34,746 bases of DNA from Chiloscyllium plagiosum (taxonomy: Eukaryota): NCBI RefSeq assembly GCF_004010195.1, contig NC_057754.1, positions 11,703,950 through 11,738,695 of the forward strand, given 5' to 3'. A program made the position numbers and the translations under genes. Below are positions 5,161 through 34,746 of this stretch, in pieces; position 1 is the first letter of the stretch; the number at the start of each line of letters is the position of its first letter. The notes beneath the pieces are model-generated. The model made no database searches and had not been told where the DNA came from. It saw only the letters and a list, made by a program, of their open reading frames with translations.

Positions 5161-6133
5161 TGTCCCAGAACAGAACCTGGCCTAGCACCAACCCCTAAGG
5201 CACCTAGTCACAGGCCTCCAGTCTGACAAGCATCCTTTCACTGTTACCCTCTGCTTCCTACCATCAAGCCAATTGTGTATCCAATTTGCCAGCTCTCCTT
5301 GGATTCCATGCGGTTTAATCTTTCAGGGCAGCCTTATCAAAGACCTTCCTGAAATCCATACAGACTACAGCCACCACCCTATCCTCGTCAACCTTCTTGG
5401 TCGCTTCAAAGAACTCTTAACAAATTTGAGAGGCATGACATCCCATGCACAAAGCCATGCTGACTACTCCTAATCAACCCTGTCTTTCCGAATATATTTA
5501 TATCTTATCCCTCAGAATTTTCTCAAGTAACTTACCTACCACAGATGTTCGGCTTACTGGTCAATATTTCCTGGGTTTTTCTTTGCAGCCTTCCTTGAAT
5601 AAGGGCACAACATTCACTATGCTCCAGTCTTCTGGAACCTCACCAATGGCAAAAGATGATGGAAAAATATCAACTCGGGCCTCTGCAATTTCTTCACTAG
5701 GTTTTTACAGTGTTCTTGGATATGCCTGGTCAAGACCAGAAAATTTATCTACCTTCATACATCAACACTTCCTCTACTATGATATGGACTGTCCCCAAGA
5801 TATCACCGCCCGGGGTGGAACCCCGCACTGCCTGATTCTATCTCCTTCCCAAGATCCACAAGCCTAACTACCCCGGCTGACCTATTGTCTCAGCCTGCTT
5901 CTGCACCAACGAACTCATCTCCACCTCCCTCAATACTGTCCTATCCCCCTTAATCCAGGAACTCCTCCACATACGTTTGGGACACCACACACGCCCTCCA
6001 TCTCCTCCAAGATTTCCGTTTCCCCAGCCCCCAACTCCTCATCTTCACCATGGACATCCAATCCCTCTATACCTCCATCTGCCATGACCAGGGCCTCCAA
6101 GCCGACTGTTTCTTCCTCTCCCAACGTCCCCAC

Positions 6134-6813
6134 NNNNNNNNNNNNNNNNNNNNNNNNNNNNNNNNNNNNNNNNNNNNNNNNNNNNNNNNNNNNNNNNNNN
6201 NNNNNNNNNNNNNNNNNNNNNNNNNNNNNNNNNNNNNNNNNNNNNNNNNNNNNNNNNNNNNNNNNNNNNNNNNNNNNNNNNNNNNNNNNNNNNNNNNNNN
6301 NNNNNNNNNNNNNNNNNNNNNNNNNNNNNNNNNNNNNNNNNNNNNNNNNNNNNNNNNNNNNNNNNNNNNNNNNNNNNNNNNNNNNNNNNNNNNNNNNNNN
6401 NNNNNNNNNNNNNNNNNNNNNNNNNNNNNNNNNNNNNNNNNNNNNNNNNNNNNNNNNNNNNNNNNNNNNNNNNNNNNNNNNNNNNNNNNNNNNNNNNNNN
6501 NNNNNNNNNNNNNNNNNNNNNNNNNNNNNNNNNNNNNNNNNNNNNNNNNNNNNNNNNNNNNNNNNNNNNNNNNNNNNNNNNNNNNNNNNNNNNNNNNNNN
6601 NNNNNNNNNNNNNNNNNNNNNNNNNNNNNNNNNNNNNNNNNNNNNNNNNNNNNNNNNNNNNNNNNNNNNNNNNNNNNNNNNNNNNNNNNNNNNNNNNNNN
6701 NNNNNNNNNNNNNNNNNNNNNNNNNNNNNNNNNNNNNNNNNNNNNNNNNNNNNNNNNNNNNNNNNNNNNNNNNNNNNNNNNNNNNNNNNNNNNNNNNNNN
6801 NNNNNNNNNNNNN
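6134..6813. other. Assembly gap (N run)
   Basis: Run of n. Confidence 1.
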
Positions 6814-6969
6814 ACCTGTCAATCTTCCTTCCCACCTATCCGCTCCACCCTCCTCTCTGACCTGTCACCTTTACCCCTTCCTGCATCCACCTATTGCACT
6901 CGCAGCTACCTTCTCCCCAGCCCCACCCCCTCTCATTTATCTCTCCACCCCCGAGGCTTCCAGCCTCAT

Positions 6970-7001
6970 ACCTGATGAAGGGCTCCTGCCCGAAACATCG
7001 A
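6970..7001 (+). ncRNA. Minimal hammerhead ribozyme-like motif (slightly decayed)
   Basis: C-CTGATGA-A-GGGC-tcct-GCCC-GAAA-CA-TC-GA. Confidence 0.65.
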
Positions 7002-7881
7002 TTTTCCTGTTTCCTGACCTGCTGTGCATTTCCAGCACCACTCTAATCTTGACTCTAATCTCTAGCATCTGCTGTCCTTACTTTCACCCAAGATAACACC
7101 ACTAATTTTCCCAAGTTCCCAAGTCTTCTTGTCTTTCTCCATGGTAAACACAGAGGAGAAATATTTATTGAGGATCTCGCCCACCTTCACTTTGGTCCTT
7201 CAAGGGCCCTATTCTCTCTCTAGTTATTCTTTTTCCTTTAATATAGTTAACAAATCTTTTTGGATTCACCCTAATCTTCTGAGCCAAGGGTATCTGTGCT
7301 CCTTTTCACCCTCCTGATTTCCTTCTTCAACAACCTCCTGTATCTCCTATATACCTCCAGGGATTCTGTTGTTTCCAGCTGCCCGTACCTGAGCCTTACC
7401 TCCCTTTCTCTGGTCAAAGCCTGAATATCGCTTGTCATCCAGGGTTCCCTATTCCTGCCAACCTTGTCCTTCACCCTCATAGGAAAATATAGATCTTGAA
7501 TTCTAGCTATTTCACTTTTAAAGGCCTCCCACTTGCCGGAGGTCCCATTTGCCTGTCAATCCCTGCAAGCTCCTGTCCAATTCCATCAAAATTCACTTTG
7601 CCCCAATTTAGAACTTGAACCTGTAGACCAGTTTTGTCCCATTCTCTAACTATTTTAAAATTAAAAATAACTGTGGTCACTGATCGCAAAGTGTTCCCCC
7701 ACTGTCACTTGTTCTGCCCTATTTCCCAAGAGTAGGTCAAGTTTTGCCCCTGCTCGATTGGGACCCTCTATATACTGCTCCAGGAAATTTTCCGGAATGC
7801 AATTAACAAATTCCACCCCATCTAACCCTATGGCGGTTCCAGTCTATCTCAGGAAAATTAAAATCCCCTACTACGACAATC

Positions 7882-10819: not shown

Positions 10820-11349
10820 CTGAAAACATATCAAAAGTAAGTAAAAGATATTCCTGCTGCCTTCAAATCTTATAAGTCCCTGCAAAAGGTGTTTCAGAAA
10901 CGTGTAGTTTCAGTTGGAGGTGAAAAATGTAGCGGAGACAGGGTTCCAGGGGATAATAAGGAATGTGGGGTTGAAGTCAGAATCAGATCAGCTGGGATCT
11001 TACAGAATACAGTAGTAGAACAGGCTGAATGGGCCAAATAAGACTAAAAGACACAAGAACACAAATAGACCATCCTGCCCATCAAGTCTGCTCTACCATT
11101 TGATAATGGCTGATTATTTCTCAGCCATTTTCTCAACTCCATTCGCCTACTTGCTCTCCATAACGCACGGTCCCCTTACTAATCAGAAACCTACTGCTGT
11201 CTTAAATGACTTCATCTCCACACTTTCTGCGGCAAAGCATTCCACAGATTATCCACAAACATGCCCTCAACTTGCTACTGATCCAAACGCCTGTTGTTGA
11301 CCCTGGGACTGTTTCAGCTATTTTTTGGCATAATTTTACATGGATAAGC

Positions 11350-12160
11350 ATGAGGTGAGGAAGGAGCGGGGAGGGTGCGAGCAGGGAGGGCAGGCAAGGG
11401 AGGGGTGAGCAGGGTGGACAGGCGTGGGAGAGGGCGAGCAGGGTGGGCAGGCGTGGGAGGGGACACTCTAGGAGAGGAGGAGAGGGAGTGGCATGCGAGG
11501 AGGGGAGGGGCAGGAGGGGGTCAGCTATGAAGGGCTAGCGGGAGGGCGTGGAGGAGGACTGGAGGGGGCGACCGGGGAGGGGAGGAGCAGGAGGGTGGTG
11601 AGTGAGAAGGTGAGCGAGGAGGGAAGGTTCTGAAGGGGGCGAGCGAGGAGGGAAGGCATGTGAGGAGGCGTGGCGTGGTAGGAGGCAAGTGAGGGTCANN
11701 NNNNNNNNNNNNNNNNNNNNNNNNNNNNNNNNNNNNNNNNNNNNNNNNNNNNNNNNNNNNNNNNNNNNNNNNNNNNNNNNNNNNNNNNNNNNNNNNNNNN
11801 NNNNNNNNNNNNNNNNNNNNNNNNNNNNNNNNNNNNNNNNNNNNNNNNNNNNNNNNNNNNNNNNNNNNNNNNNNNNNNNNNNNNNNNNNNNNNNNNNNNN
11901 NNNNNNNNNNNNNNNNNNNNNNNNNNNNNNNNNNNNNNNNNNNNNNNNNNNNNNNNNNNNNNNNNNNNNNNNNNNNNNNNNNNNNNNNNNNNNNNNNNNN
12001 NNNNNNNNNNNNNNNNNNNNNNNNNNNNNNNNNNNNNNNNNNNNNNNNNNNNNNNAGGAGGGGTGGGTAGATGGCGAAGCTGCGGCAAAGGTGAGGACAT
12101 TGGGCGGGCAATGGTCTGAAGGTAGGGAGAGTGGCGGGGGCGAGATGGGGCAGGGAGCAG
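11350..12160 (+). repeat. G/A-rich low-complexity tract with a ~29-bp imperfect tandem repeat; contains gap 11699-12055
   Basis: About three GAGCAGGGTGGRCAGGCGTGGGAG-like units at ~11379-11459; dense GGG runs. Confidence 0.85.
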
Positions 12161-12444
12161 CGAGACAAACAAAGGATCATCGGTTCCTGAGTTAACTTCC
12201 AAGCTTGGTCTCAAAAACAAACAACTCATTCATTCTTTTGATCACCAGCTGCTGCTCAGTCAAAAGCCATTTGTTCAGCTCTCAGATTCAAAACGAAAAT
12301 ATTTTTAAAATCTGCAAGTTTTTTGACAACGCACAGTGGAAAAACCTTTAACCAGTGACACAGATTGAGTTAGTGGGGCAGTATTGATTGGAGTTGAGAA
12401 CAATGAGAGGTGGTCTCATTGAAGCAAATTAGATTCTGAAGGGT

Positions 12445-14326
12445 CTTCGGAAGCCAGGGAAGTGATTGCTGGGCTCCTTCTTGTGATGTTTGTGTCATCG
12501 ATAGTCACAGGTGAGGGGCCAGGAGACTGTAGGTTGGCTGAAGTGGTTCCACAATTTAAGAAAGATGGTAAGGAAAAGCCAGTGAACTCTCGGCTGGTGA
12601 GCCTGACATCGGTGGTGGGCAGACTGTTGGAGGGAATCCTGACAGACAGGATTTACTTGCATTTAGAAAGGCAAGGACTGATTTGGGTTAGTCAACGTGG
12701 TTTTGTGCATGGAAAATCATGTCTCACGAACTTGACTGAATTTTTTTAAGTAGTTTCGCGGAGCGCTGACCAGTGGACATATCTATATGGTCTAGGAGAA
12801 ACTGAGGACTGCAGATGTGAAGATCAGAGTCAAATGTGTGGCGCTGGAAAAAAACAGGTCAGGCAGCATCCGAGGAGCGGGTGAGTCGATGTTTCGAGCA
12901 GAACCCTTCATCAGGAGTGTGGGTACCTTCCCTTGCCATTACAAGAGGTATAAAACCTGCACCTACACCTACCACTCCTCACCTCCATTCAAGGCCCCAT
13001 TTTCCTGCACATCTGAACACCTCACCTACTGTGTCTGTTGGTTTTTATTTGGTTTCCTCTACATCAGGGAGACAAGAAGCCAATTTGTGGAATTCACAGA
13101 ACATCTCCAGAACACATGCACAAAACAACCCCACCATCATGTGGCTGACCACCTCAACTCCCCCTCCCACTCTACTAAGGACAGACAAGTTGCAGGCGCC
13201 TTCACCACCAAATCCTAGCCACCAAAACCTGGAGAAAGAACACTTCATCTTCTGCCTTGGGATCCTCCAACCACATGGAATCAATGTCAATTTCACCAGT
13301 TTCATCTCCTCTCCCCCAGCTTATCCCAGGTCCAGCCCCCACCAACTCAGCATCATCCTCTTGAACTGTCCTACCCGTCCATCTTCCTTCCCACCCATCT
13401 ACTCCACTCTATCACCATCACACCCCACCTTCATCTACCTATCTTCTCCCCAGCTCCACTCCCCTCCCATTCATCACACACCACCCCCTATAGTCCTGGT
13501 GAAGTGCTTATGCCCAAATTGTTAAGTTTCCTGCTCCTCGGATGCTGTCTGACCTGCTGTGATCTATATGGACTTCAGTAAGATGTTCGACAATGTTCCT
13601 CATGGTAGACTGGTTAGCAAGGTTAGATCTCATGGAATACAGGGAGAACTAGCCATTTGGATACAGAGCTGGCTTGAAGGTAGAAGACAGAGAGTGGTGG
13701 TGGAGGGTTGCGTTTCAGAATGTAAGCCTGTGACCAGTGGTGTGCCACAAAGATTGGTGCTGGATCCATTACTTTTTGCCATTTATATAAACAATTTGAA
13801 TGTGAACGTAGGAGGAATGGTTAGTAAGTTTGCAGATGACACTAAAATTGGAGGTGTAGTGGACAGCGAATGAAGGTACCTCAGCATACAACAGGAGCTT
13901 GATCAGATGGGCCAATGGGCTGAGGAGTGGCAGATGGAGTTTAATTTAGATAAATATGATGTGTGCCATTTTGGAAAGGCAAATCAGGGCAGGACATTTA
14001 CACTTAATGGTAAGGTCCTGGGGAGTCTTGCTGAACAAAGAGACCTTAGAGTTCAGGTTCATAGTCCTTGAAAGTGGAGTCACAAGTAAATAGGATAGTG
14101 AAGAAGGCATTAGGTCTGCTTTCTTTCATTGGACAGAGTATTGAATATAGGAGTTTACAGGTTATGTTGCGGTGTACAGGACATTGGGTAGGCCACTTTT
14201 AGAATATTGTGTGCAATTTTGGTCTCCCTCCTACTGGAAGGAAATTGTGAAACATGATAGAGTTCAGAAAAGATTCACAAGGAGGTTGCCAGGGTTGGAG
14301 GGTTTGAGCTATAGGGAGAGGCTGAA
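12445..14326 (+). mobile_element. CR1-clade LINE RT fragment interrupted by a Penelope-like element
   Basis: SQRGFVHGKSCLTNLTEFF, then IYMDFSKMFDNVPH and VSKFADDTKIGGVVDSE after the insertion. Confidence 0.92.
12791..13561 (+). mobile_element. Truncated Penelope-like element: inverted terminal repeat, GIY-YIG endonuclease remnant, direct terminal repeat
   Basis: FSCTSEHLTYCVC...FLYIRETR...EHL...HVADHLNSPSHS. Hammerhead motif on the minus strand at 12886-12916 and a decayed one on the plus strand near 13494. Perfect 10-bp duplication ATCTATATGG at 12781-12790 and 13562-13571. Confidence 0.88.
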
Positions 14327-18181: not shown

Positions 18182-18928
18182 CATAGACTGAAATAAAATG
18201 GAAACAGACCCTTCGGTTCAACTTATCCATGCTGATCAGATATTCTAACCTAATCTAGTCCCATTTGCCAGCATTTGATTGCTTCATTCCTGATGAAGGG
18301 CTTTTGCCTGAAACGTCGATCTTCCTGCTCCTCGGATACTCCCTGACCTGCTGTGCTTTTCCAGCACCACTCTAGTCTAGACCCCTACATCTCTCTAAAG
18401 CCTTCCTATTCATATACCTATCCATATGCCTTTTAAATGCTGCAATTGTACCAGCTTCCACTACTTTTTCTGGCAGCTCATTTCATACATGTATAACCCT
18501 CAGCATGAAAGGATTGCCCCTTAGGTCCCTTTTATATCTTTCTCCTTTGACCCTAAACCTATGTCCTCTAGTTCTACACTCACCCCAGGGAAAAGACCTT
18601 CTCTAATTATCCTATCCATGCCCCTCATGATTCTATAAACCTCTATGAGGTCACTCCTCAGACTCCGGCATTCCAGGGAAAACAGCCCCAGCTTATTCAG
18701 CCTCTCCCAATAGCTCAAATCCTCCAAATCTGGCAACATCCTTGTAAATATTTTCTGAACCATTTCAAGTTCCACGACATCCTTCCGATAGGAAGGAGAC
18801 CAGAATTACAAGCAATATTCCAAAAGTGGCCTAATCAACAACCTGTAAAGCTGCAATATGACCTCCCAACTCCAATACTCTGACCAATAAAGGAAAGCAT
18901 ACCAAATGCCTTCTTCACTATCTTATCT
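18182..18928 (-). mobile_element. CR1 3' portion
   Basis: LEMVQKIFTRMLPDLEDLSYWERLNKLGLFSLE, plus 3' UTR. Confidence 0.88.
18280..18381 (+). mobile_element. Solo Penelope-like terminal repeat (family 1) with a hammerhead motif at 18288-18319
   Basis: TC-CTGATGA-A-GGGC-tttt-GCCT-GAAA-CG-TC-GA followed by CTGACCTGCTGTGCTTTTCCAGCACCAC. Confidence 0.8.
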
Positions 18929-19777
18929 TCAGTTTACAGAAACAATATGGATGTTCTTTCCATTGGATTAGAATTTATTTGATCATCCAGACAGCAGAGA
19001 CAGAGATCCCTACACTATGGAGATCCTGTGGAAATATCAGGACAATGACAGGGATACAGTTACCCACCTGAGCTGACCACCCAATGGTGCAGTCACACCA
19101 GGGTCAGACAATTTCTCTGCTCCACGTGCAGGAAGAATTCAGTCAGACATTTAGGTGCTGAGAGCCCTGTTAAGTTTACAGGGAGTTACAGGAGTTGGAT
19201 TCTGTGGGATTGCTGCTTTTTATCCCACCCACCTTCATCTTCCCTTCATATTGGCCTTTTCCTGCAGTAAGTGTACAAACCAGCAGAGCCGCACATGCAG
19301 ATTTTGGCTCAGAATGGTTGGGGGGGGTGGAAAGAGTGTGGGCTACGCATGGTCACGCCCACTCACGGTCACATCACGACATTGGCGGACACCCACCAAA
19401 AACAAAGACTAACGGCCGTTAAACGGGGCCTGTTTCAGGAGGAGGCCCGAGGACTCCGCTGCACCAGAACACTCAGGTTTGGGGATTGCGACCTCAACTC
19501 CACAATTATGAATTATACTTTCCAGAATGTTTCTCCGACAGCTGCCTACTTTAACCTTTGCCTACTTTAACCTTTACCTACCACCCATGGAATGTGATAA
19601 ACTTCCAACCGTCACAGACATGTTCGATATCCCAATCAGCTGTGCGCATGCTCCACTCTGCCACCCGCCTGATTGACGGCGCAGAGCCAATAGGAAGCAA
19701 GAGGCGGGATAGGAGCTGCCGGCCATCCATTCAGAGTGAGCGAGGGACTCACCCTAACCAATCAACGATTATGGGGC

Positions 19778-19914
19778 TCTGGATTAGTTCTGCTGGAAGA
19801 GCACAGCAGTTCAGGCAGCATCCAAGGATTTATTCCTGATGAAGGGCTTTTGCCCGAAACGTCGATTTCGCTGCTCCTTGGATGCTGCCTGAACTGCTAC
19901 GCTCTTCCAGCACT
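19778..19914. mobile_element. Foldback Penelope-derived cassette enclosing a perfect hammerhead motif
   Basis: Arms TGCTGGAAGAGCACAGCAGTTCAGGCAGCATCCAAGGA and TCCTTGGATGCTGCCTGAACTGCTACGCTCTTCCAGCA. 17-bp duplication ATCAACGATTATGGGGC (19761-19777) and ATCAATGATTATGGGGC (19915-19931). Confidence 0.88.
19834..19865 (+). ncRNA. Minimal (short stem III) hammerhead ribozyme motif, intact core
   Basis: TC-CTGATGA-A-GGGC-tttt-GCCC-GAAA-CG-TC-GA; predicted cleavage after GUC. Confidence 0.78.
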
Positions 19915-20059
19915 ATCAATGATTATGGGGCGGTCTAGCGCTTTAACCTATCGGAGAGAGTGAGGGGCGGGATTAGTCCTACAACTAATCAGTGAAAGAG
20001 GAGGCGGGTCTGGAGCCAGAACTTGGTCCTGGACTGAAAGGCGAAAGTGGGTCCTGAAG

Positions 20060-20150
20060 GTTAGAGTGGTGCTGGAAAAGCACAGCAGGTATGGCATCAT
20101 CCGAGGAGGAGGAAAATCGACGTTTCGGGCAAAAGCCCTTCATCAGGAAT
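20060..20150 (-). mobile_element. Solo Penelope-like terminal repeat with an intact hammerhead motif (20117-20148, minus strand)
   Basis: TCGACGTTTCGGGCAAAAGCCCTTCATCAGGA is the exact reverse complement of 19834-19865. Confidence 0.82.
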
Positions 20151-20309
20151 GAGGCGGGACTGGGAGGGCATTGTTCTCACAATGTTTCTGCAGCACATTC
20201 AATGGAAGCATTTTCAGATAGTCAAATCCAAGCAGATCTCACAGCAAAGTCGAATAAAGACACTCCCCGTTCACGAACTCCTCAATATCATCGGCCTTTC
20301 ATCGTGCAA

Positions 20310-21300
20310 TGTAAAAGAATAATGCACAGAGGGGTACAGGCCCTTCCGCTTCCCCTAAACCTGCAACTACATTATTTAACCTTCCATACTGAAACTGTCT
20401 GCACTTACAGGATCCAAAGCTCACTGCTGCCTTTCTTTTCATGTATTCGTCCAGGTGTTCCTTGAATGCCTCCGTTGTGTCTGCTTCCGCCGCTTCCGCC
20501 GCTTCCTCTGTCAACACATTCCAGGCATTCACCACCTTTTGTGTGAAAAAACCTGCCTCACGTATATCTTTTAAACATCCTCTCTATTCCTGTACATTGA
20601 ACCTCTGTCCCCTGGTAATTGACCCCTCCACCCTGGGAAAAAGCCTCATACCTTCCACTCTATCCATGCCATTCACAATCTTATAAACTTTTATCAGGTC
20701 ACCCCTCAATCTCCTGTGTTGTAGTGAAAGCAAACCCAGTCCACCCAACCGTCATTCATAGCTAAAATACCCCATATCAGGCAATATCCTAGTAAACCCT
20801 TTTCCAAAGAATCCACATCTTTATGGTAGTGTATGCAATATTCAAAGGGTGGCCTAACTAAAGTTCTATAAAGCTGCTGCATAACTTGCCAATCTTTATA
20901 CTCAATGCCCCTTCCAGTGAAGTTAAAAATCACACAACATCAAGTTATAGTCCAACGGGTTTATTTGGAAGTACAAGCTTTCTGAGTGCTGCCCCTTTGT
21001 CAGGTAGTTGATGTAGGATCAGCGCTCTGAAAGCTTGTACTTCCAAATAAACCTGTTGGATTATAGCCTGGTGTTGGGTGATTTTTAATTTTGTCAACCA
21101 GCAACTCTACATCATGCCTTCCAATGAAAGCAAGCATGCCATTGGCCATTTCTACTAGCTTATGTACGTGCATTGCCACTTTTAGTGATCTGTGGACTTG
21201 CACACTCAGATCCCTGTGCTGATCAATACATATAAAGGTTCTGCCATTGACTGAACAATGTCCACCTGTAGTTGACCTTCCAAAGTGCATCATCTCACAT
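20310..21300 (-). mobile_element. CR1 3' portion interrupted at 20922-21116
   Basis: QLYRTLVRPPFEYC, VNAWNVL and EMMHFGRS on the minus strand. Confidence 0.85.
20922..21116. mobile_element. Foldback cassette, Penelope-like family 2
   Basis: Arms GTTAAAAATCACACAACATCAAGTTATAGTCCAACGGGTTTATTTGGAAGTACAAGCTTTC and its near reverse complement. Duplication CCTTCCAGTGAA (20910-20921) and CCTTCCAATGAA (21117-21128). Confidence 0.82.
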
Positions 21301-21641
21301 GTGTCCGGTAAATGGGCCTGTTTCATGAATGCCAACTTTCTATGTAGCAACAGAGTCTCTCTAATTCCCCTGCTTTCCTCCCAAAACTCTGCAAGTTTAT
21401 TTCTCTAAAAAAGGAAATTAGATGAGCATTTTAAGTCATTGGTTCTCCTCGGTTCCACCCGTAAGGTGAGAGGTCTGGGTAGGACCACTCATTCTGGAAA
21501 AGAAAGCTTTATTCCACCTGTGGTTTTGTAAAATGTTGTGCATAATACATACCCCAACATTTTAGAATTTACATAAATCCCTTAAATGAGGGGATTGAAG
21601 GCATAGTAACTAAAGATGGATTTAAGAAACCTAGGTTATTG

Positions 21642-21959
21642 GATTAGATTAGATTACATACAGTGTGGAAACAGGCCCTTCGGCCCAACAAGTCCACACC
21701 GCCCCGCCGAAGCGCAACCCACCCATACCCCCCTACATTTACCCCTTACCTAACACTACGGGCAATTTAGCATGGCCAATTCACCTGACCTGCACATCTT
21801 TGGACTGTGGGAGAAAACCGGAGCACCCGGAGGAAACCCACGCAGACACGGGGAGAACGTGCAAACTCCATACAGTCAGTCGCCTGAGGCGGGAATTGAA
21901 TCTGGGTCTCTGGCGCTGTGAGGCAGCAGTGCTAACCACTGTGCCACCGTGCCGCCCAC
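21642..21959 (-). mobile_element. HE1/V-SINE-like element, full length and young (CpGs retained)
   Basis: The minus strand starts GTGGGCGGCACGGTGGCACAGTGGTTAGC; V core and (AATCT)n tail present. Confidence 0.94.
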
Positions 21960-21964
21960 CACGA

Positions 21965-23035
21965 AGACATAAGGAGTTTACGTACCAATATTGGTAGATA
22001 GATTCAGTGAATATGCAAAATATCTTGCAGATGGACTAAAATGTTCACCTTGACTGGAAGGATAAATAAGAGCAAAGCATTACTTAAATGGAGAATGACT
22101 ACAGAATTTGGAGGTGGAGAGGGCTTTAAAGCATGTCACAGAGTTTGCATGTAGGAACAGCATATAATCAAGAAATATAATGGTTTGTTATCCTTTTTAT
22201 GACAGGAATTGAATAGAAATGTAAGGATGTTCTGAAATAAAAACAGAAATTGTGGAAAAAGCTCAGCAGGTCTAGAAGCATCTGTGCAGAGAAATCAGAA
22301 TTAATGTTTCAGGTCAAGTGTTTTGTGTCCTCAGAACTGATGGTTGCTAGGAAAATCTCAGTTTATTTCCAGAAGATAGGGTGGGGAGAGAGGGTATTGA
22401 GTAAATGATAGATGGGAATGGAGCCCAAACAGACAGAAGAACAGTTGGACAGACAAATGAATGGAAAATGACCTGGCTAGAAGGATGAAGAGCTATTAAT
22501 GGGGACTGGTACACATTAACAATAAGCTGTGTCTGATAGCAGAATACGTGATAACAAGGTCTGATGTCTGGGGATTGGGGTAAGGACATGGGAGAGCTCA
22601 AGCCCAAAAGTTATTGAACTCATTATTGAGTGTGGAGGGCTGCAGGGTCCCCAAGCTGAAAATAAGGTACTGTTCTTCCAGCTTGTGCTGAGCTTTGTTA
22701 AAGCACTGCAGCAAGACGGAGACAGAGATGTTGGCCAGGGAACAGGGTGGTGTGTTGACGTGGCAGGCAAGTGGAAGCCTTACCATGCCTTTTTTGCACA
22801 AAATATACTGAGAGCGGTTGAGCTTTTTCAGCAATTTCTGTTTTTGTTTCTGATTTAAAGCATCCACAGTTCTTTTGGCTTTTAATAAGGATGTTCTGCT
22901 TCATTTATGCAGAGAATTGGTAAATCCACATTTCAAATACTGTATGCAATTTTCATCATTATCTTTCAGGAAACATATAAATTTATTGGAGTGGTTCAGA
23001 GGCTGTTTATTAGATTGAAACCTGGAATAGGTGAC
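21965..23035 (+). mobile_element. Old CR1 RT fragment split by the insertion at 22235-22885
   Basis: Degenerate similarity to other CR1 copies (TTACTTAAATGGAGA, AATACTGTATGCAATTTT). Confidence 0.6.
22235..22885 (-). mobile_element. Truncated Penelope-like element with inverted termini (family 4)
   Basis: KLEEQYLIFSLGTLQPSTLNNEF (PLE C-terminus). Inverted ends AAAAACAGAAATTG..AAAAAGCTCA and TGAGCTTTTT..CAATTTCTGTTTTT. Perfect 13-bp duplication TAAGGATGTTCTG at 22222-22234 and 22886-22898. Decayed hammerhead at 22299-22338(-). Confidence 0.85.
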
Positions 23036-24963
23036 TGACAGTGAACCCGAGAAGCATGTTCAGGGAAGGACATTTGAAATAAAAACAAGGAGATAATCTG
23101 AGGAAAAAATATACCAAACTTAGATAAAGGAGGGAACATATGGGATATAGTAATTTATGCTTCTAAACTAAGTATATTCACACCATCCAGAATAATGTGT
23201 TCTGAATGTCTATCATTGATTTACAATATCTTTGCTCAAACCATATTCCTCTTCTTGAGCAGTCAGTAAGGATCAAGAATGACTTTCTTCCACTTAAGTG
23301 TTGTGGGTCCTGAGGTTATTCAGTAGTTCAAGGCTAGATCCACAAAAGCACTACCACATGTGGGGCAGATGATATTTGCTGAAGGGAATGGGAGTGATGC
23401 TCAGTCACATGCTTTTTCCATTGTTAATATTCATTTTCCATCTTGGCCTAAAGATGTTCAAAATTGTTGACTTCTTCGCAGATGCATCTTCACCAAAGTG
23501 GATGGTTTGGGTCAACAATTACCCCCCCCCAGTGAATGGGAATATTGGATTTTTCGTTTGAGAAAATGTGGAGACAAACTTGAATGCATTTCTCTGCCAA
23601 CCTGGAAATATTTTTCCTTGAGGATGCTTAGTCAGATTAAAGAGTATGTATTGGAAGCCCTCTATCAGGCATGTGGATGATGTGAACTGCCCAATGCAGA
23701 TGATTGATCATACCCAGCCCCTGAATTCAATGTTCTTTGGTCTGATCTGCACCTGGTATAACTTTTTACATGGGTCAGGTATGGCATGAAACACGAAATC
23801 AATAATCCACAAGGGCACCTGATAACGATGAATAAAACTAACTTCTCTCAGGGAGATAGAACATTGTGAACATGAGCTATTGCATTTAAAGTCTAGAAAG
23901 GAATCGTAACAAATCACTGCTTCTCAAAATTTCCCAGTATGACCCATTTTAATGCCTCAGAATCTGTCTCACCCAAAAATTACAGGTTTTGGGGTGACAG
24001 AGAATTGTTGATCAATGGGAGAAGGGGGAGGCAGGTGGGGTGTTAATAACAGATTATTCATGAATTTTAACCTCAATTATTAATGCAATAACATTCAGTT
24101 TATTCAGATTTTAAAACTGGCAATTTTTAAAATCTAACAGGATCCTGATTCTTTATATAATAGGGATGATTATTAATTGTAATAATTTTGATATTTCATA
24201 AATCAGAGGTGATTATTGATGAAATATTTTCCAAATTATTGAAGGAAGAAGCAACTGATTATAAATGAAAGCAACTGTATAAATAATTAAATCTTGATTC
24301 ATCATAAACCCACACACAGAATCTTAAAAGCATAGGTGGCAGCCATTTGGCCCATTATGCTGGCACTGTCTCTGAAAATACTGACAATTTGTTCCTTTTC
24401 CTTAAATGGTCTATCCCTTAATCTGAGACAAAGTCCCTGGTTCTAATCTGAACATCCTGGGGAGATATCAATCTACATCCATTCTGTCAGAACATTGTAA
24501 GTTTCAATGAGATCAAATATTATGATCCCAGTTGATGGAAATACTGCACAAGTCAAATCTCTGAATGAAATCTGACTTAATCTGAAACTCATGTTTCATT
24601 TTTGCAATTAAATTACACATTTGGTTAATTACTGAACATATTCACATGAGGCTACCAACATTCATTTTAATAATATAACACATTTATTGCATAAAATAAG
24701 GCTCTATACAAAGGTGACAATTTTGAAAGACCTTAACACATTTAAACAATTTCCCCAGTAAAATACTCAATCTCAGTGAAGTATCACTCTTGTCTTTTTT
24801 TCATCTGTTAATGGGATATGGTTGTTGCTGGCTCAACACTAACTGCTTGGCTGGTAGTGGTGGTGAGGTGCCTTCCTGAATGTCTGCCCTCATTAGGGTC
24901 TTCAGTCACACACATTGCTATTCTATCACTTTAAAACTTGATTCAAAGTTCCACATTATGATG

Positions 24964-25242
24964 TTAAAAATCACACAACATCAGGTTATAGTCCAACAGG
25001 TTTAATTGGAAGCACACTAGCTTTCGGAGCATCATCAATTTTTCAATGTATAATTTCAGTTACATCACACTGTAAATTTTTGCTATAAATTCTGTGTGTT
25101 AGGATTGAGCCCTCCACTACCACCTGATGAAGGAGCGATGCTCCGAAAGCTAGTATGCTTCCAATTAAACCTGTTGGACTATAACCTGGTGTTGCGTGAT
25201 TGTTAACTTTGTACACCCCAGTCCAACATCGGCATCTCCAAA
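24964..25242 (+). mobile_element. Foldback cassette, Penelope-like family 2, with a hammerhead motif at 25121-25155
   Basis: Inverted arms of ~70 bp. CAC-CTGATGA-A-GGAGC-gat-GCTCC-GAAA-GC-TA-GT. Duplication CCACATTATGATG (24951-24963) and CCACATTATTATG (25243-25255). Confidence 0.85.
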
Positions 25243-26224: not shown

Positions 26225-27814
26225 CACTTGTGGACTTGCTGCTGTCTAAGCAGATGTACTATTAGGAAGGATTTCTCAGTGAATCCTTTCCAAATTTAGT
26301 GAAGAATGACCTCTCTCCAATGTGAATTTGCTGGTGTACACTGATTTGAGACAATCATCTGAACCCAGTCCCGCAGAGAGTGCACTTGAGTGGTCTCTCA
26401 TTGGTGTGAACACAGTTCAATCCCCCAGAACTTTTAAAATACTTGCCTCATTGTGGACATTTAAAATGCCTCTCATCAGAGTGAACACATTGATGGCGTA
26501 TCAGATCTCAGGATCTTGTATAACATTTTCCACACACTGTGCATTTGAAAGGTCTCTCCCAAATGTGAACTCGCTGGTGAGTCAGGAGGTGGATTTTCTG
26601 AGTGAAACCCTTCCCACATACAGAGCAGGTGAATGGTCTCTCTCCGGTATGAGTGCGCTGGTGTGCAGTGAGACGAGATGACCGCTTGAACCCAATCCCA
26701 CACTGTGAGCACCTAAATGGTCTGTTGTCAGTGTGAACATGTTCATGTAACTTCAGTTCTCCAGAGCTTTTATAACACTTCACGCAGTCGGGACATTTGA
26801 AAGGTCTCACCTGAGTGTGAATTCGCTGGTGTGCCTTGAGGTGGGCTGATTCACAAAATCCCTTCCCACACTGAGTGCAGGTGAATGGCCTCTCCCCAGA
26901 GTGAACTCGTTGGTGTGTCAAAAGGGTGGAAAACCGAAAGAATATTTGTCCACATTCAGAGCAGATGAATGACCTCTCCCCAGTGTGAAGACGCTGGTGT
27001 AGAGTGAGTTGAGATGATCTCTTGAAGCCGTTTCCACAGTGAGAGCACCTGAACGGTCTCTCCTCAGTGTGAACACGGTGATGGATGATCAGCTCCCTGG
27101 AACCTTTAAAGCACTTTCCACACTCTGAACATTTAAAGGGTCTCTCCTCAGTGTGAACCACGTTGATGGGATTGCAGATAGTGAGAACTTTTAAAACACT
27201 TCCTGCAGTTTGGGCATTTAAAAGGTCTCTCCTCACTGTGAACCTGCTGGTGTGCCTTGAGGTGATAGGACTGAGTGAATCCACTTCCACATTCAGAGCC
27301 GGTGAATGGCCTCTCCCCAGTGTGAACGTGTTGGTGAACAGTGAGTTGGGATGACCACTTGAAGCCAGCCCTCCCAGTCGGAGCATGTGAACCGTCTCTC
27401 CTCAGTGTGAATACGCTGATGGGACATCAGCTCACTGGAACTTTTAAAGCACTTCCCACAGTCTGGACATTTAAAAGGTCTCTCCTTAGTGTGAACTCGC
27501 TGGTGTGTCAGCAAGGTCAGCAATTGAGTGAATCCTCTTTCACACAGGGAGCAGATGAATGGCCTCTCCCCTATGTGAATACGTTGATGAATTTTCAGTG
27601 CAGAATGATGGCTGAATCCCTTTTCACAATCCCCACATTTCCATGGTTTCTCCACAACGTGACTGCATTTATGGTTCTTGAGGCCAATTGATTGGCTGAA
27701 GCCTTTTTTGCATGCAGAACACAAGTATTTGTTCTCCCCATTGTGAATGGTGCTTTCTTCTTTTATGTTTAAAATGTGGTGATATTCTGGTTGTGATAAA
27801 CTGGGTGACTCCAT
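26225..27814 (-). pseudogene. C2H2 zinc-finger array gene without a visible KRAB/SCAN domain (~17-18 finger units), disrupted
   Basis: CxxC-x12-HxxxH fingers with [11 protein letters not shown] linkers across three frames. ATG at 27814. +1 frameshifts at ~27370-27376 and ~27158. In-frame TGA at 26508-26510, 26448-26450 and 26355-26357. Polypyrimidine tract plus CAG acceptor at 27876-27877, just upstream of the ATG. Confidence 0.88.
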
Positions 27815-28064
27815 TAGATCATGGTGTGATGTTTGCTTTCAGTTTGCAGCCTTCAAATCCCCCACTTCTCATACTCTGTGGATTAATTTGAAACAGAAGG
27901 CAGGAGTAAGAGAGAAGGCACAAAAACATAAAGGCAGGTTGTAAAAGCATACTGAGTGAATCTGGGGCAATTTGCTGGACAGGCACTTGGGAACAGTTAC
28001 CACAAAAGCTTCTCAAATGTCATAGAAGCTCAAAATTAATATCGATCAGAGAAGAAACCTGCTA

Positions 28065-28628: not shown

Positions 28629-28860
28629 GGAGAAAGTGAAGACTGAAGATGCTAGAGATCAGAGTCAAAGAGTGTGGTGCTGGAAAAACAGAGCCAGTCA
28701 GGCAGTATCTGAGGAGCAGGAGAGTCTATGTTTCGAGCATTAGCTCTTCCTCAGGAAGGAGCCATCCTTAGTGAGATCAAAACACTCCTGATAAACAGTT
28801 TATGCTTGAAACGAAGATTCTCCTGCTCCTTGGCTTTTCCAGCACCCCACGTTTTGACTC
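28629..28860. mobile_element. Inverted pair of family-1 Penelope-like terminal repeats
   Basis: GGAGAAAGTGAAGACTGAAGATGCT start. Hammerhead motif at 28725-28756(-): TC-CTGAGGA-A-GAGC-taat-GCTC-GAAA-CA-TA-GA. Decayed plus-strand copy near 28786-28850. Confidence 0.75.
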
Positions 28861-29079
28861 AAAGACTTCCATCTTAGGAACATCAACTGAATCCATCCCA
28901 GTCGCAGCTCATCTGCTTCTGAAACTCTCATCCACTCCATTATTATCTGTACACTTAATGATCCTAACACTTCTCCACATTGAACCTTTTAGTAAGTGAG
29001 ATGACTGACCCTTGCGCTACCTGTCTCCTCACTCACACCAACTCTTACTGAGCCATCCTCAGTGGCATGAAAACATTGT

Positions 29080-29288
29080 CCCACAGGAGGGCCGCGCATG
29101 CCCTCTGCTACACCGTGACCTTATCAAGATGACATCTGCCCAGAGGAAGGCCGCGCATGGGCTCTACTACACCGTGACTTTATCAAGGTGGCATCCTCCC
29201 ACAGGAGGGCTGCACATGCCCTCTGCTACACCTTAGCCCTATAAAGATCGCATCCTCCCATAGGAAGGTCAAGCACGTGCTCTGCTAG
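29080..29288. repeat. 59-bp tandem repeat (3.5 units), candidate promoter of the zinc-finger gene
   Basis: Units start at 29080, 29139, 29198 and 29257, and contain GCCGCGCATG and AAGATGRC-like words. Confidence 0.85.
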
Positions 29289-29349
29289 CCAATGCGGATG
29301 GCATCCCGAAGTCTGTGCACACCTGCTCCCTCAACGAAATGTTGGAGCA

Positions 29350-34372: not shown

Positions 34373-34746
34373 TGGCGAAAGTGAGGACTGTAGATGCTGG
34401 AGATTAGAGTCTATAGTGTGGTGCTGGAAAAGCACAGCGGGTTAGGCAACATCCGAGTAGCAGGGAAGTCGATGTTTCAGGCAAAAGCCCCATCAGGAAT
34501 GAGGCTGGGAGACTTGGGATTAGAGTCTATAGTGTGGTGCTGGAAAAGCACAGCGGGTTAGGCAACATCCGAGTAGCAGGGAAGTCGATGTTTCAGGCAA
34601 AAGCCCCATCAGGAATGAGGCTGGGAGACTTGGGGGAGGAGAGATAAATGGGAGGGGTGGGGTTGGGGGGGGTGAAGGTAGCGGAGAGTGTGATTGGTGG
34701 GTGGAAGTGGGGGCAATGGTGATAGGTCGGAGAGGAGGGTGGAGCG
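34373..34746 (-). mobile_element. Family-1 Penelope-like 3' terminus with an exact 116-bp tandem duplication; runs off the window
   Basis: 34402-34517 equals 34518-34633; each copy has a hammerhead remnant with a damaged CTGATGA core. Confidence 0.85.

Follow-up and report, generated by a model that had tools for sequence, protein, structure and literature searches.

Two putative Penelope-like element ends with minimal hammerhead motifs upstream of a probable CpG-rich promoter in Chiloscyllium plagiosum

Two perfect, convergent hammerhead motifs beside a CpG-rich patch of the Chiloscyllium plagiosum genome are very probably inert passengers, brought in by two independent insertions of Penelope-like element ends upstream of a leftward promoter. 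The window analysed, 34,746 nt of contig NC_057754.1, is repeat-rich vertebrate DNA with 1613 N and SINE- and LINE-like pieces. Judged from the sequence, both cassettes are identified as end stubs of a Penelope-like retrotransposon carrying a minimal type I hammerhead. They would have inserted independently, in the upstream portion of a CpG-rich promoter present in single copy. Each presumably arose when target-primed reverse transcription stopped early and left a 5′-truncated copy. The motifs may have stayed identical as the most constrained part of active source elements, with low promoter methylation sparing their three CpGs. Three things would keep them inert: their position outside the leftward mRNA, their inability to form helix III by themselves, and the single duplex into which any RNA reading through both would draw them.

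The preliminary description reported these as the only two flawless copies of the motif in the window, exact 32-nt reverse complements facing each other, and this was upheld. String comparison across the window showed motif A (19834–19865, plus strand, predicted cut 19863/19864) to be the exact reverse complement of motif B (20117–20148, minus strand, predicted cut 20119/20118), in convergent orientation. Identity reached 37 nt, 2 nt further left and 3 nt further right (19832–19868 and 20114–20150). The pair were the sole copies with 0 mismatches among seven ungapped matches in a window scan allowing up to 11 mismatches; the next-best copy (18288–18319), 1.5 kb off, had one mismatch, a CpG transition. 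A flawless motif, in this usage, is one that equals the family consensus of the window and retains its CpGs.

Cassette A (19778–19914) is a palindrome with a predicted hairpin of −83.4 kcal/mol (z −11.6), and many other contigs start matching at its left edge (19778–19779). Its inverted arm (19778–19828, minus strand), the 3′ part of the element end without the hammerhead, matches the right arm at 36/39 nt, and its sense arm (19829–19914, plus strand) is the putative 5′-truncated end of a Penelope-like element. The flanking 17-bp target-site duplication overlaps the CCAAT box at 19758 with its left copy (19761–19777, plus strand) and runs into the GC box at 19928 with its right copy (19915–19931, plus strand). 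That this duplication parts a CCAAT box from its GC box had been claimed before, and the spacing fits: the reconstructed empty site, CCAAT plus 11 nt plus GC box, equals the intact unit at 19687–19708, so that cassette A would have split one CCAAT/GC-box unit. The two copies of the duplication, however, are not identical, differing at one CpG position (C19766 versus T19920) that had gone unflagged.

Cassette B (~20057–20155, minus strand) appears to be an independent 5′-truncated end of the same element family. It has at least four private changes (20091, 20092, 20097 and 20109), at which 85–96% of the depth in run X11 carried the other letter; summed over six unique pieces, X11 and the window disagree at 59 of 1164 letters (5.1%). 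We found no duplication flanking B, only 5–6 nt chance words away from the junctions, and saw no inverted arm. Host sequence with GC boxes at 19965 and 20003 separates the cassettes (19932–20056) and is less conserved, with 8 and 10 differences in 113 letters in X11 contigs. No tandem array was found across the cassettes. A single insertion event spanning both cassettes was rejected, since A comes with a duplication of its own and 11 of 80 columns distinguish it from B. A 135-aa frame over cassette B was rejected as a gene, with three sub-threshold Pfam matches only.

The family to which the cassettes belong is dispersed, with 10 motif-bearing copies in the window. Summed contig depth in X11 was 2.5–2.9 million over the motifs and 14 over the promoter core, a contrast of five orders of magnitude which, though not a copy number, shows that the family is huge. 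The link to Penelope-like elements comes from a sister unit (~12790–13560) composed of an inverted end, a GIY-YIG-like frame and an end with a degenerate motif, with the same 10-bp word on either side, at 12781 and 13562. The frame had an atlas score of 0.94 and clusters with PF01541 in 13–23% of members. Placement of the motif in the terminal repeat of an element with reverse transcriptase (RT) and GIY-YIG domains was thus seen at the family level only, where sister copies flank the GIY-YIG-like frame. Pfam gave no match in four decayed frames over the RT-like and nuclease-like pieces.

Further repeats were recorded in the window. The segment 12781–13571 looks like a complete small Penelope insertion with its 10-bp duplication, apparently within a LINE reverse-transcriptase remnant. 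At 5954–7090, a Penelope RT-like piece (a lead only, score 0.89) is followed by an N gap and then by a family end with a hammerhead at 6970 and a long tail. Head-to-head palindromic family stubs also occur at 28630–28870 and 2680–2825, the one at 2.7 kb without a hammerhead on either arm. A second palindromic short-element family occupies 24960–25240 and 20920–21100, and its copy at 25124–25154 has a different hammerhead-like core. Exact or near-exact tandem duplications of 116, 178 and 39 bp (34402–34634, 214–570 and 2462–2540) are possibly assembly artefacts. A 59-bp tandem array of 3.5 copies with GCGCATG words lies at 29075–29290, and a G-rich, CpG-containing low-complexity stretch surrounds an N gap at 11340–12170.

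Published systems share parts of this anatomy. The min-HHRs of metazoan Penelope-like elements are described, in the excerpted text of Cervera and De la Pena 2014 (PMC4209133), as mostly solo truncated copies, with dual opposite-strand motifs 100–700 bp apart. The motifs here share the type I core, the extra nucleotide after A9, the G10.1-C11.1 pair, the palindromic 15.2–16.2 stretch and the lack of helix III, but helix II is only 4 bp and helix I has only two contiguous pairs. The promoter setting is absent from that account as excerpted; one file of its supplement had 0 matches for 'shark' or 'Callorhinchus', and shark entries may stand in the rest. Excerpts of Arkhipova et al. 2013 (PMC3846280) describe endonuclease-bearing Penelope elements with an inverted pLTR and a target-site duplication. 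Cassette A resembles this layout, with an inverted terminal repeat at its 5′ end and a duplication, while B has neither; unlike it, each insert measures no more than 137 or 99 bp in all, and the duplication is 17 bp versus 8–10 bp in the rotifer examples excerpted. Like the Poseidon element PAc of Anolis, as excerpted from Frangieh et al. 2024 (PMC11167929), the family has its hammerhead in the pLTR and variable 3′ ends; PAc prefers AT-rich (ATT) targets, and the duplication of cassette A contains ATT. Unlike the cassettes, PAc is a full active element, whose ribozyme requires the protein for cutting and is not needed for insertion in vitro. Animal non-LTR retrozymes, in the excerpted text of bioRxiv 10.64898/2026.07.22.740005, are likewise short non-autonomous Penelope-derived hammerhead units, one chondrichthyan included. 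By definition, these contain two or more successive tandem units, each with a complete motif, whereas the A/B pair is inverted with host DNA between. The literature covered held nothing on point about Penelope hammerheads in sharks, the supplements of that preprint and part of PMC4209133 being outside its scope.

The DNA into which the cassettes inserted has been called a CpG-rich promoter and island with CCAAT and GC boxes; the boxes were confirmed and a promoter is probable, but the island is modest. CpG islands are recognised by GC >0.5 and CpG o/e >0.6 over 200 bp, and by a stricter rule of GC 0.55 over 500 bp. The patch passes the first rule and fails the second: its promoter-like single-copy core (19340–19777) has a GC content of 0.53 and a CpG o/e of ~0.7. 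The values were 0.528 and 0.73 for 19340–19780 and 0.524 and 0.62 for 19300–20200, against a window o/e of 0.30, and repeat-containing stretches near 700–1300 and 21560–22100 scored as high among 784 N-free 440-bp windows. Distinct GC-box hexamers are clustered, with 6 of the 18 window sites in 19664–20158. The spacing of CCAAT and GC box alone was not above chance (1 match versus 1.67 expected). The proximal elements (19632–19708, plus strand) comprise CCAAT at 19632, TGCGCATGC at 19643–19651, which we take to be NRF1-like, CCCGCC at 19664, and CCAAT at 19687 with a GC box at 19703. One X11 contig covered 19340–19801 at a depth of 14.1 with 18 other letters in 449; among the 14 of 18 core differences listed, only that at 19665 falls inside a proximal element word. 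An LTR origin of the patch is unlikely given its single-copy depth in X11 and the lack of a second copy in the window.

The direction of transcription comes from a single contig of X15, which is only guessed to be RNA. At a depth of 2.7, 172 of its 186 letters match 19397–19568 with one difference. The other 14, which do not match, extend left of 19397 from precisely the position of a GT donor on the minus strand (19396–19395; context TTG/GTGGGT). Because the contig stops at this donor, the transcript would run leftward, placing both cassettes upstream, and 19397–19568 (minus strand) is a probable first or early exon. On the simplest reading of this one low-depth contig, a spliced leftward transcript has its start at position 19568 or further right, under the control of the CCAAT/GC elements at 19632–19708. 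Of the 8.3 million records of the single-cell run X22, none matched, an outcome without bearing on transcription. Together, the clustered boxes, the single-copy depth in a relative and the contig ending at a GT donor indicate that the patch is probably a real promoter. We guess that the gene is a further member of a zinc-finger cluster, lying outside the window.

It is instead possible, if unlikely, that the CpG-rich patch is not the promoter of this transcript, and that the contig derives from DNA or from an exon lying further downstream or reached by read-through, perhaps one of the zinc-finger locus at 26.3–27.8 kb. The contigs show neither start nor strand, X15 is RNA by guess only, and the zinc-finger frames are on the same strand. 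Against this, GC boxes and CCAAT words cluster directly right of the contig end and are conserved in X11. Pfam searches of seven frames gave good matches only in the two zinc-finger frames (26.3–27.8 kb, minus strand). That C2H2 array (26300–27870, minus strand) has strong Pfam matches, is split over several frames, which may reflect a pseudogene or assembly errors, and has a splice-acceptor-like sequence nearby, near 27870. The low-copy segment 18946–19290 has a splice-acceptor-like site at 19025 (minus strand); diverged paralogous contigs match it, several from X11 and one from X15. A 16-bp tandem duplication at 19543–19581 is present in the window and X15 and missing in X11.

Upstream of a leftward promoter, the cassettes could matter as DNA or double-stranded RNA: A might have altered promoter strength by parting the CCAAT and GC boxes and duplicating 17 bp, or the inverted A/B pair might give dsRNA. 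The insertion site within a CCAAT/GC unit accords with the first, and the 82-nt arms, 87% complementary and with a predicted A/B duplex of −133 kcal/mol, with the second. In X11, however, two substitutions (19969 G>A and 19971 G>A) disrupt the GC box that lies right of A at 19965, and the stretch between the cassettes is 7–9% diverged versus 4% in the core. Little therefore seems to depend on that box, and the proximal CCAAT/GC unit stayed intact, which suggests that the insertion of A was tolerated. We regard this alternative as rather improbable.

Equally improbable in our estimate is plain youth of both copies, in a region that is not unusually low in methylation. The modest CpG enrichment, equalled by repeat-rich stretches, would accord with this, as would one CpG transition inside the duplication of cassette A and another in the GC box at 19965. 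Yet an X11 contig at single-copy depth enters cassette A by 24 letters past the duplication, fewer than the 31 that our rule for bridging demands. Because a relative about 5% diverged already has the left junction of A, cassette A predates the split and is not young. Cassette B, for its part, has its private changes within 99 nt, and CpG transitions are rare in the core. Among the 14 listed of 18 differences from X11 in 19340–19777, which has 26 CpG sites, one was a CpG transition, compared with 3 of 13 listed differences in the right flank (20159–20457; 9 CpG sites). This contrast gave Fisher p = 0.044 on a count that set aside 10 of 40 listed difference rows (cassette rows, 20391, 18979 and 18991), and the worst case, with all four unlisted core differences taken as CpG transitions, gives p = 0.40. 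The rarity of CpG transitions thus weakly favours low germline methylation of the core. Of the two options offered earlier, an island unmethylated in the germline or young copies, the first is retained at that strength and the second falls for A. In elephant shark somatic tissue, start sites are hypomethylated and transposons methylated according to the excerpted account (PMC5437953).

Dates could be only coarse. The epaulette shark mutation rate, 7e-10 per generation (CI 1.4–14.1e-10; PMC10587355, in excerpt), yields only 'millions of generations'. X15 and X11 share an organism label, yet over the 172 letters in which X15 shows a single difference from the window, X11 shows four listed substitutions and two deletions; dating therefore made no use of labels. 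The match of an X17 contig covering 20144–20284 (141 of 163 letters, 11 differences, depth 3.1) ends at 20144, at the border of motif B, and leaves 22 letters unmatched. B could be absent or altered in organism C, and we did not count this contig as evidence.

We aligned nine copies, leaving out a duplicate near 34616 and omitting three arm-only rows from the nine-copy counts. Four of the nine (A, B, 18288 and 34500) had no non-CpG substitution in the motif, while their 3′ parts differed at 3–6 of 46 sites. As had been proposed, other copies show CpG-type decay, the seven other aligned copies having kept 9 of 21 motif CpGs. Retention in A and B (6/6) exceeded this (p = 0.02) and, less clearly, the 7/12 of the four least diverged copies (p = 0.11), but the test is circular because A and B were picked for being flawless. 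None of the columns at which A and B differ falls within the first 32 (p = 0.002), the strongest figure in favour of the preliminary description and one accounted for by the family-wide conservation of the motif over the rest. For 4–5 private changes in the 99 nt of B, the probability that all fall outside the 37 identical nt is 0.15–0.09; for 2–5 changes in A it is 0.53–0.20. By these estimates, flawlessness is within chance for the age of the copies and is a family-wide property at non-CpG sites. The figures from within the window fit chance together with retained CpGs, and contigs of the orthologous copies break within the repeat. At the A/B locus, too, the conservation presumably reflects selection on source elements.

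Folding predictions further argue against activity. Both motifs have a complete conserved core (CUGAUGA, GAAA and UC at the cut site), with an extra nucleotide at A19843 and a G19844-C19855 pair of predicted probability 0.999; motif A has the features described in the excerpts of PMC4209133. The palindromic ACGT at 19859–19862 stands at 15.2–16.2, and there is no monomeric helix III. In helix I, three of five positions pair in both copies (two contiguous, a U-U mismatch and one more), compared with ~4–5 bp as the norm for min-HHRs. Each motif alone is predicted to fold as an inactive hairpin without helix III and with a probability of 0.03 for the first pair of helix I. No canonical self-sufficient type I hammerhead was found, which would have helices I and III in stable form or a tandem partner on the same strand. 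Rfam gave 0 matches at the gathering score in the whole window, and none of five matches at E ≤10 in 19300–20300 was to a hammerhead family; these we attribute to hairpin chance. The excerpts of PMC4209133 report no cleavage for single minimal motifs, which need a dimer, and little for dimers. The nearest same-strand copy is 1.5 kb off and has a G10.1-U wobble. As a dimer needs two same-sense copies and A and B are opposite, RNA reading through both would bury the core in duplex, and predicted through-transcripts of either strand indeed pair the two motifs (−199 and −169 kcal/mol). According to these models, the convergent layout works against ribozyme use. Cassette A folded alone has its motif in a hairpin loop, so a short plus-strand RNA ending before B could leave motif A free.

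Co-option as ribozymes, which the preliminary description had raised, would take the form of an upstream antisense plus-strand RNA carrying motif A, cut with the help of an element protein or a family RNA in trans and tuning the promoter, with B doing likewise for minus-strand RNA. The complete cores, the motif free of A/B differences, the retention of A since before the 5% split and its exposure in a hairpin loop when folded alone speak for this, as does protein-assisted cleavage in a lizard element (PMC11167929, excerpted). We nevertheless consider it very improbable: neither motif has a helix III alone, helix I is weak, no same-strand partner is nearby and the opposite copies anneal. The one putative spliced transcript would run away from the cassettes, its contig sitting left of both, and flawlessness is within chance. 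Among the matches listed (24 of ~59,600 pieces), no RNA contig bridges unique flank and motif A, and in the excerpted text of PMC11167929 even the active lizard element, which cuts only with its protein, has no RNA-seq reads ending at its site. The narrowest form of co-option has the slightest probability of all: cassette A would have been retained since before the 5% split because upstream antisense RNA of the promoter carries its minimal hammerhead in sense, and cutting of this RNA would have to wait for Penelope protein or another RNA of the family to complete the ribozyme in trans.

The cassettes, which we favour as passengers, also differ from known cases of domestication. Like the domesticated amniote hammerheads (RECK, CTCL and DTNB introns, Clec2 3′ UTR; PMC6155905, excerpted), they are of retroelement type and near a host gene. 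The amniote ones, however, are highly conserved, inside host transcripts and in some cases equipped with tertiary contacts, whereas the present motifs are of the minimal kind, match a consensus found in many copies and lie upstream of the transcript. Nothing on point about a co-opted hammerhead in a promoter was found in the literature covered. Proof of co-option would make this a case of hammerhead domestication in a promoter instead of an intron or UTR. Were the antisense reading completed in trans true, promoter output would sense transposon activity, and, given the abundance of the family, other shark promoters could carry such a switch. Under the passenger reading, transposon stubs beside a promoter would keep their consensus CpGs, and 'perfect' ribozyme motifs would be expected there and would be no sign of function.
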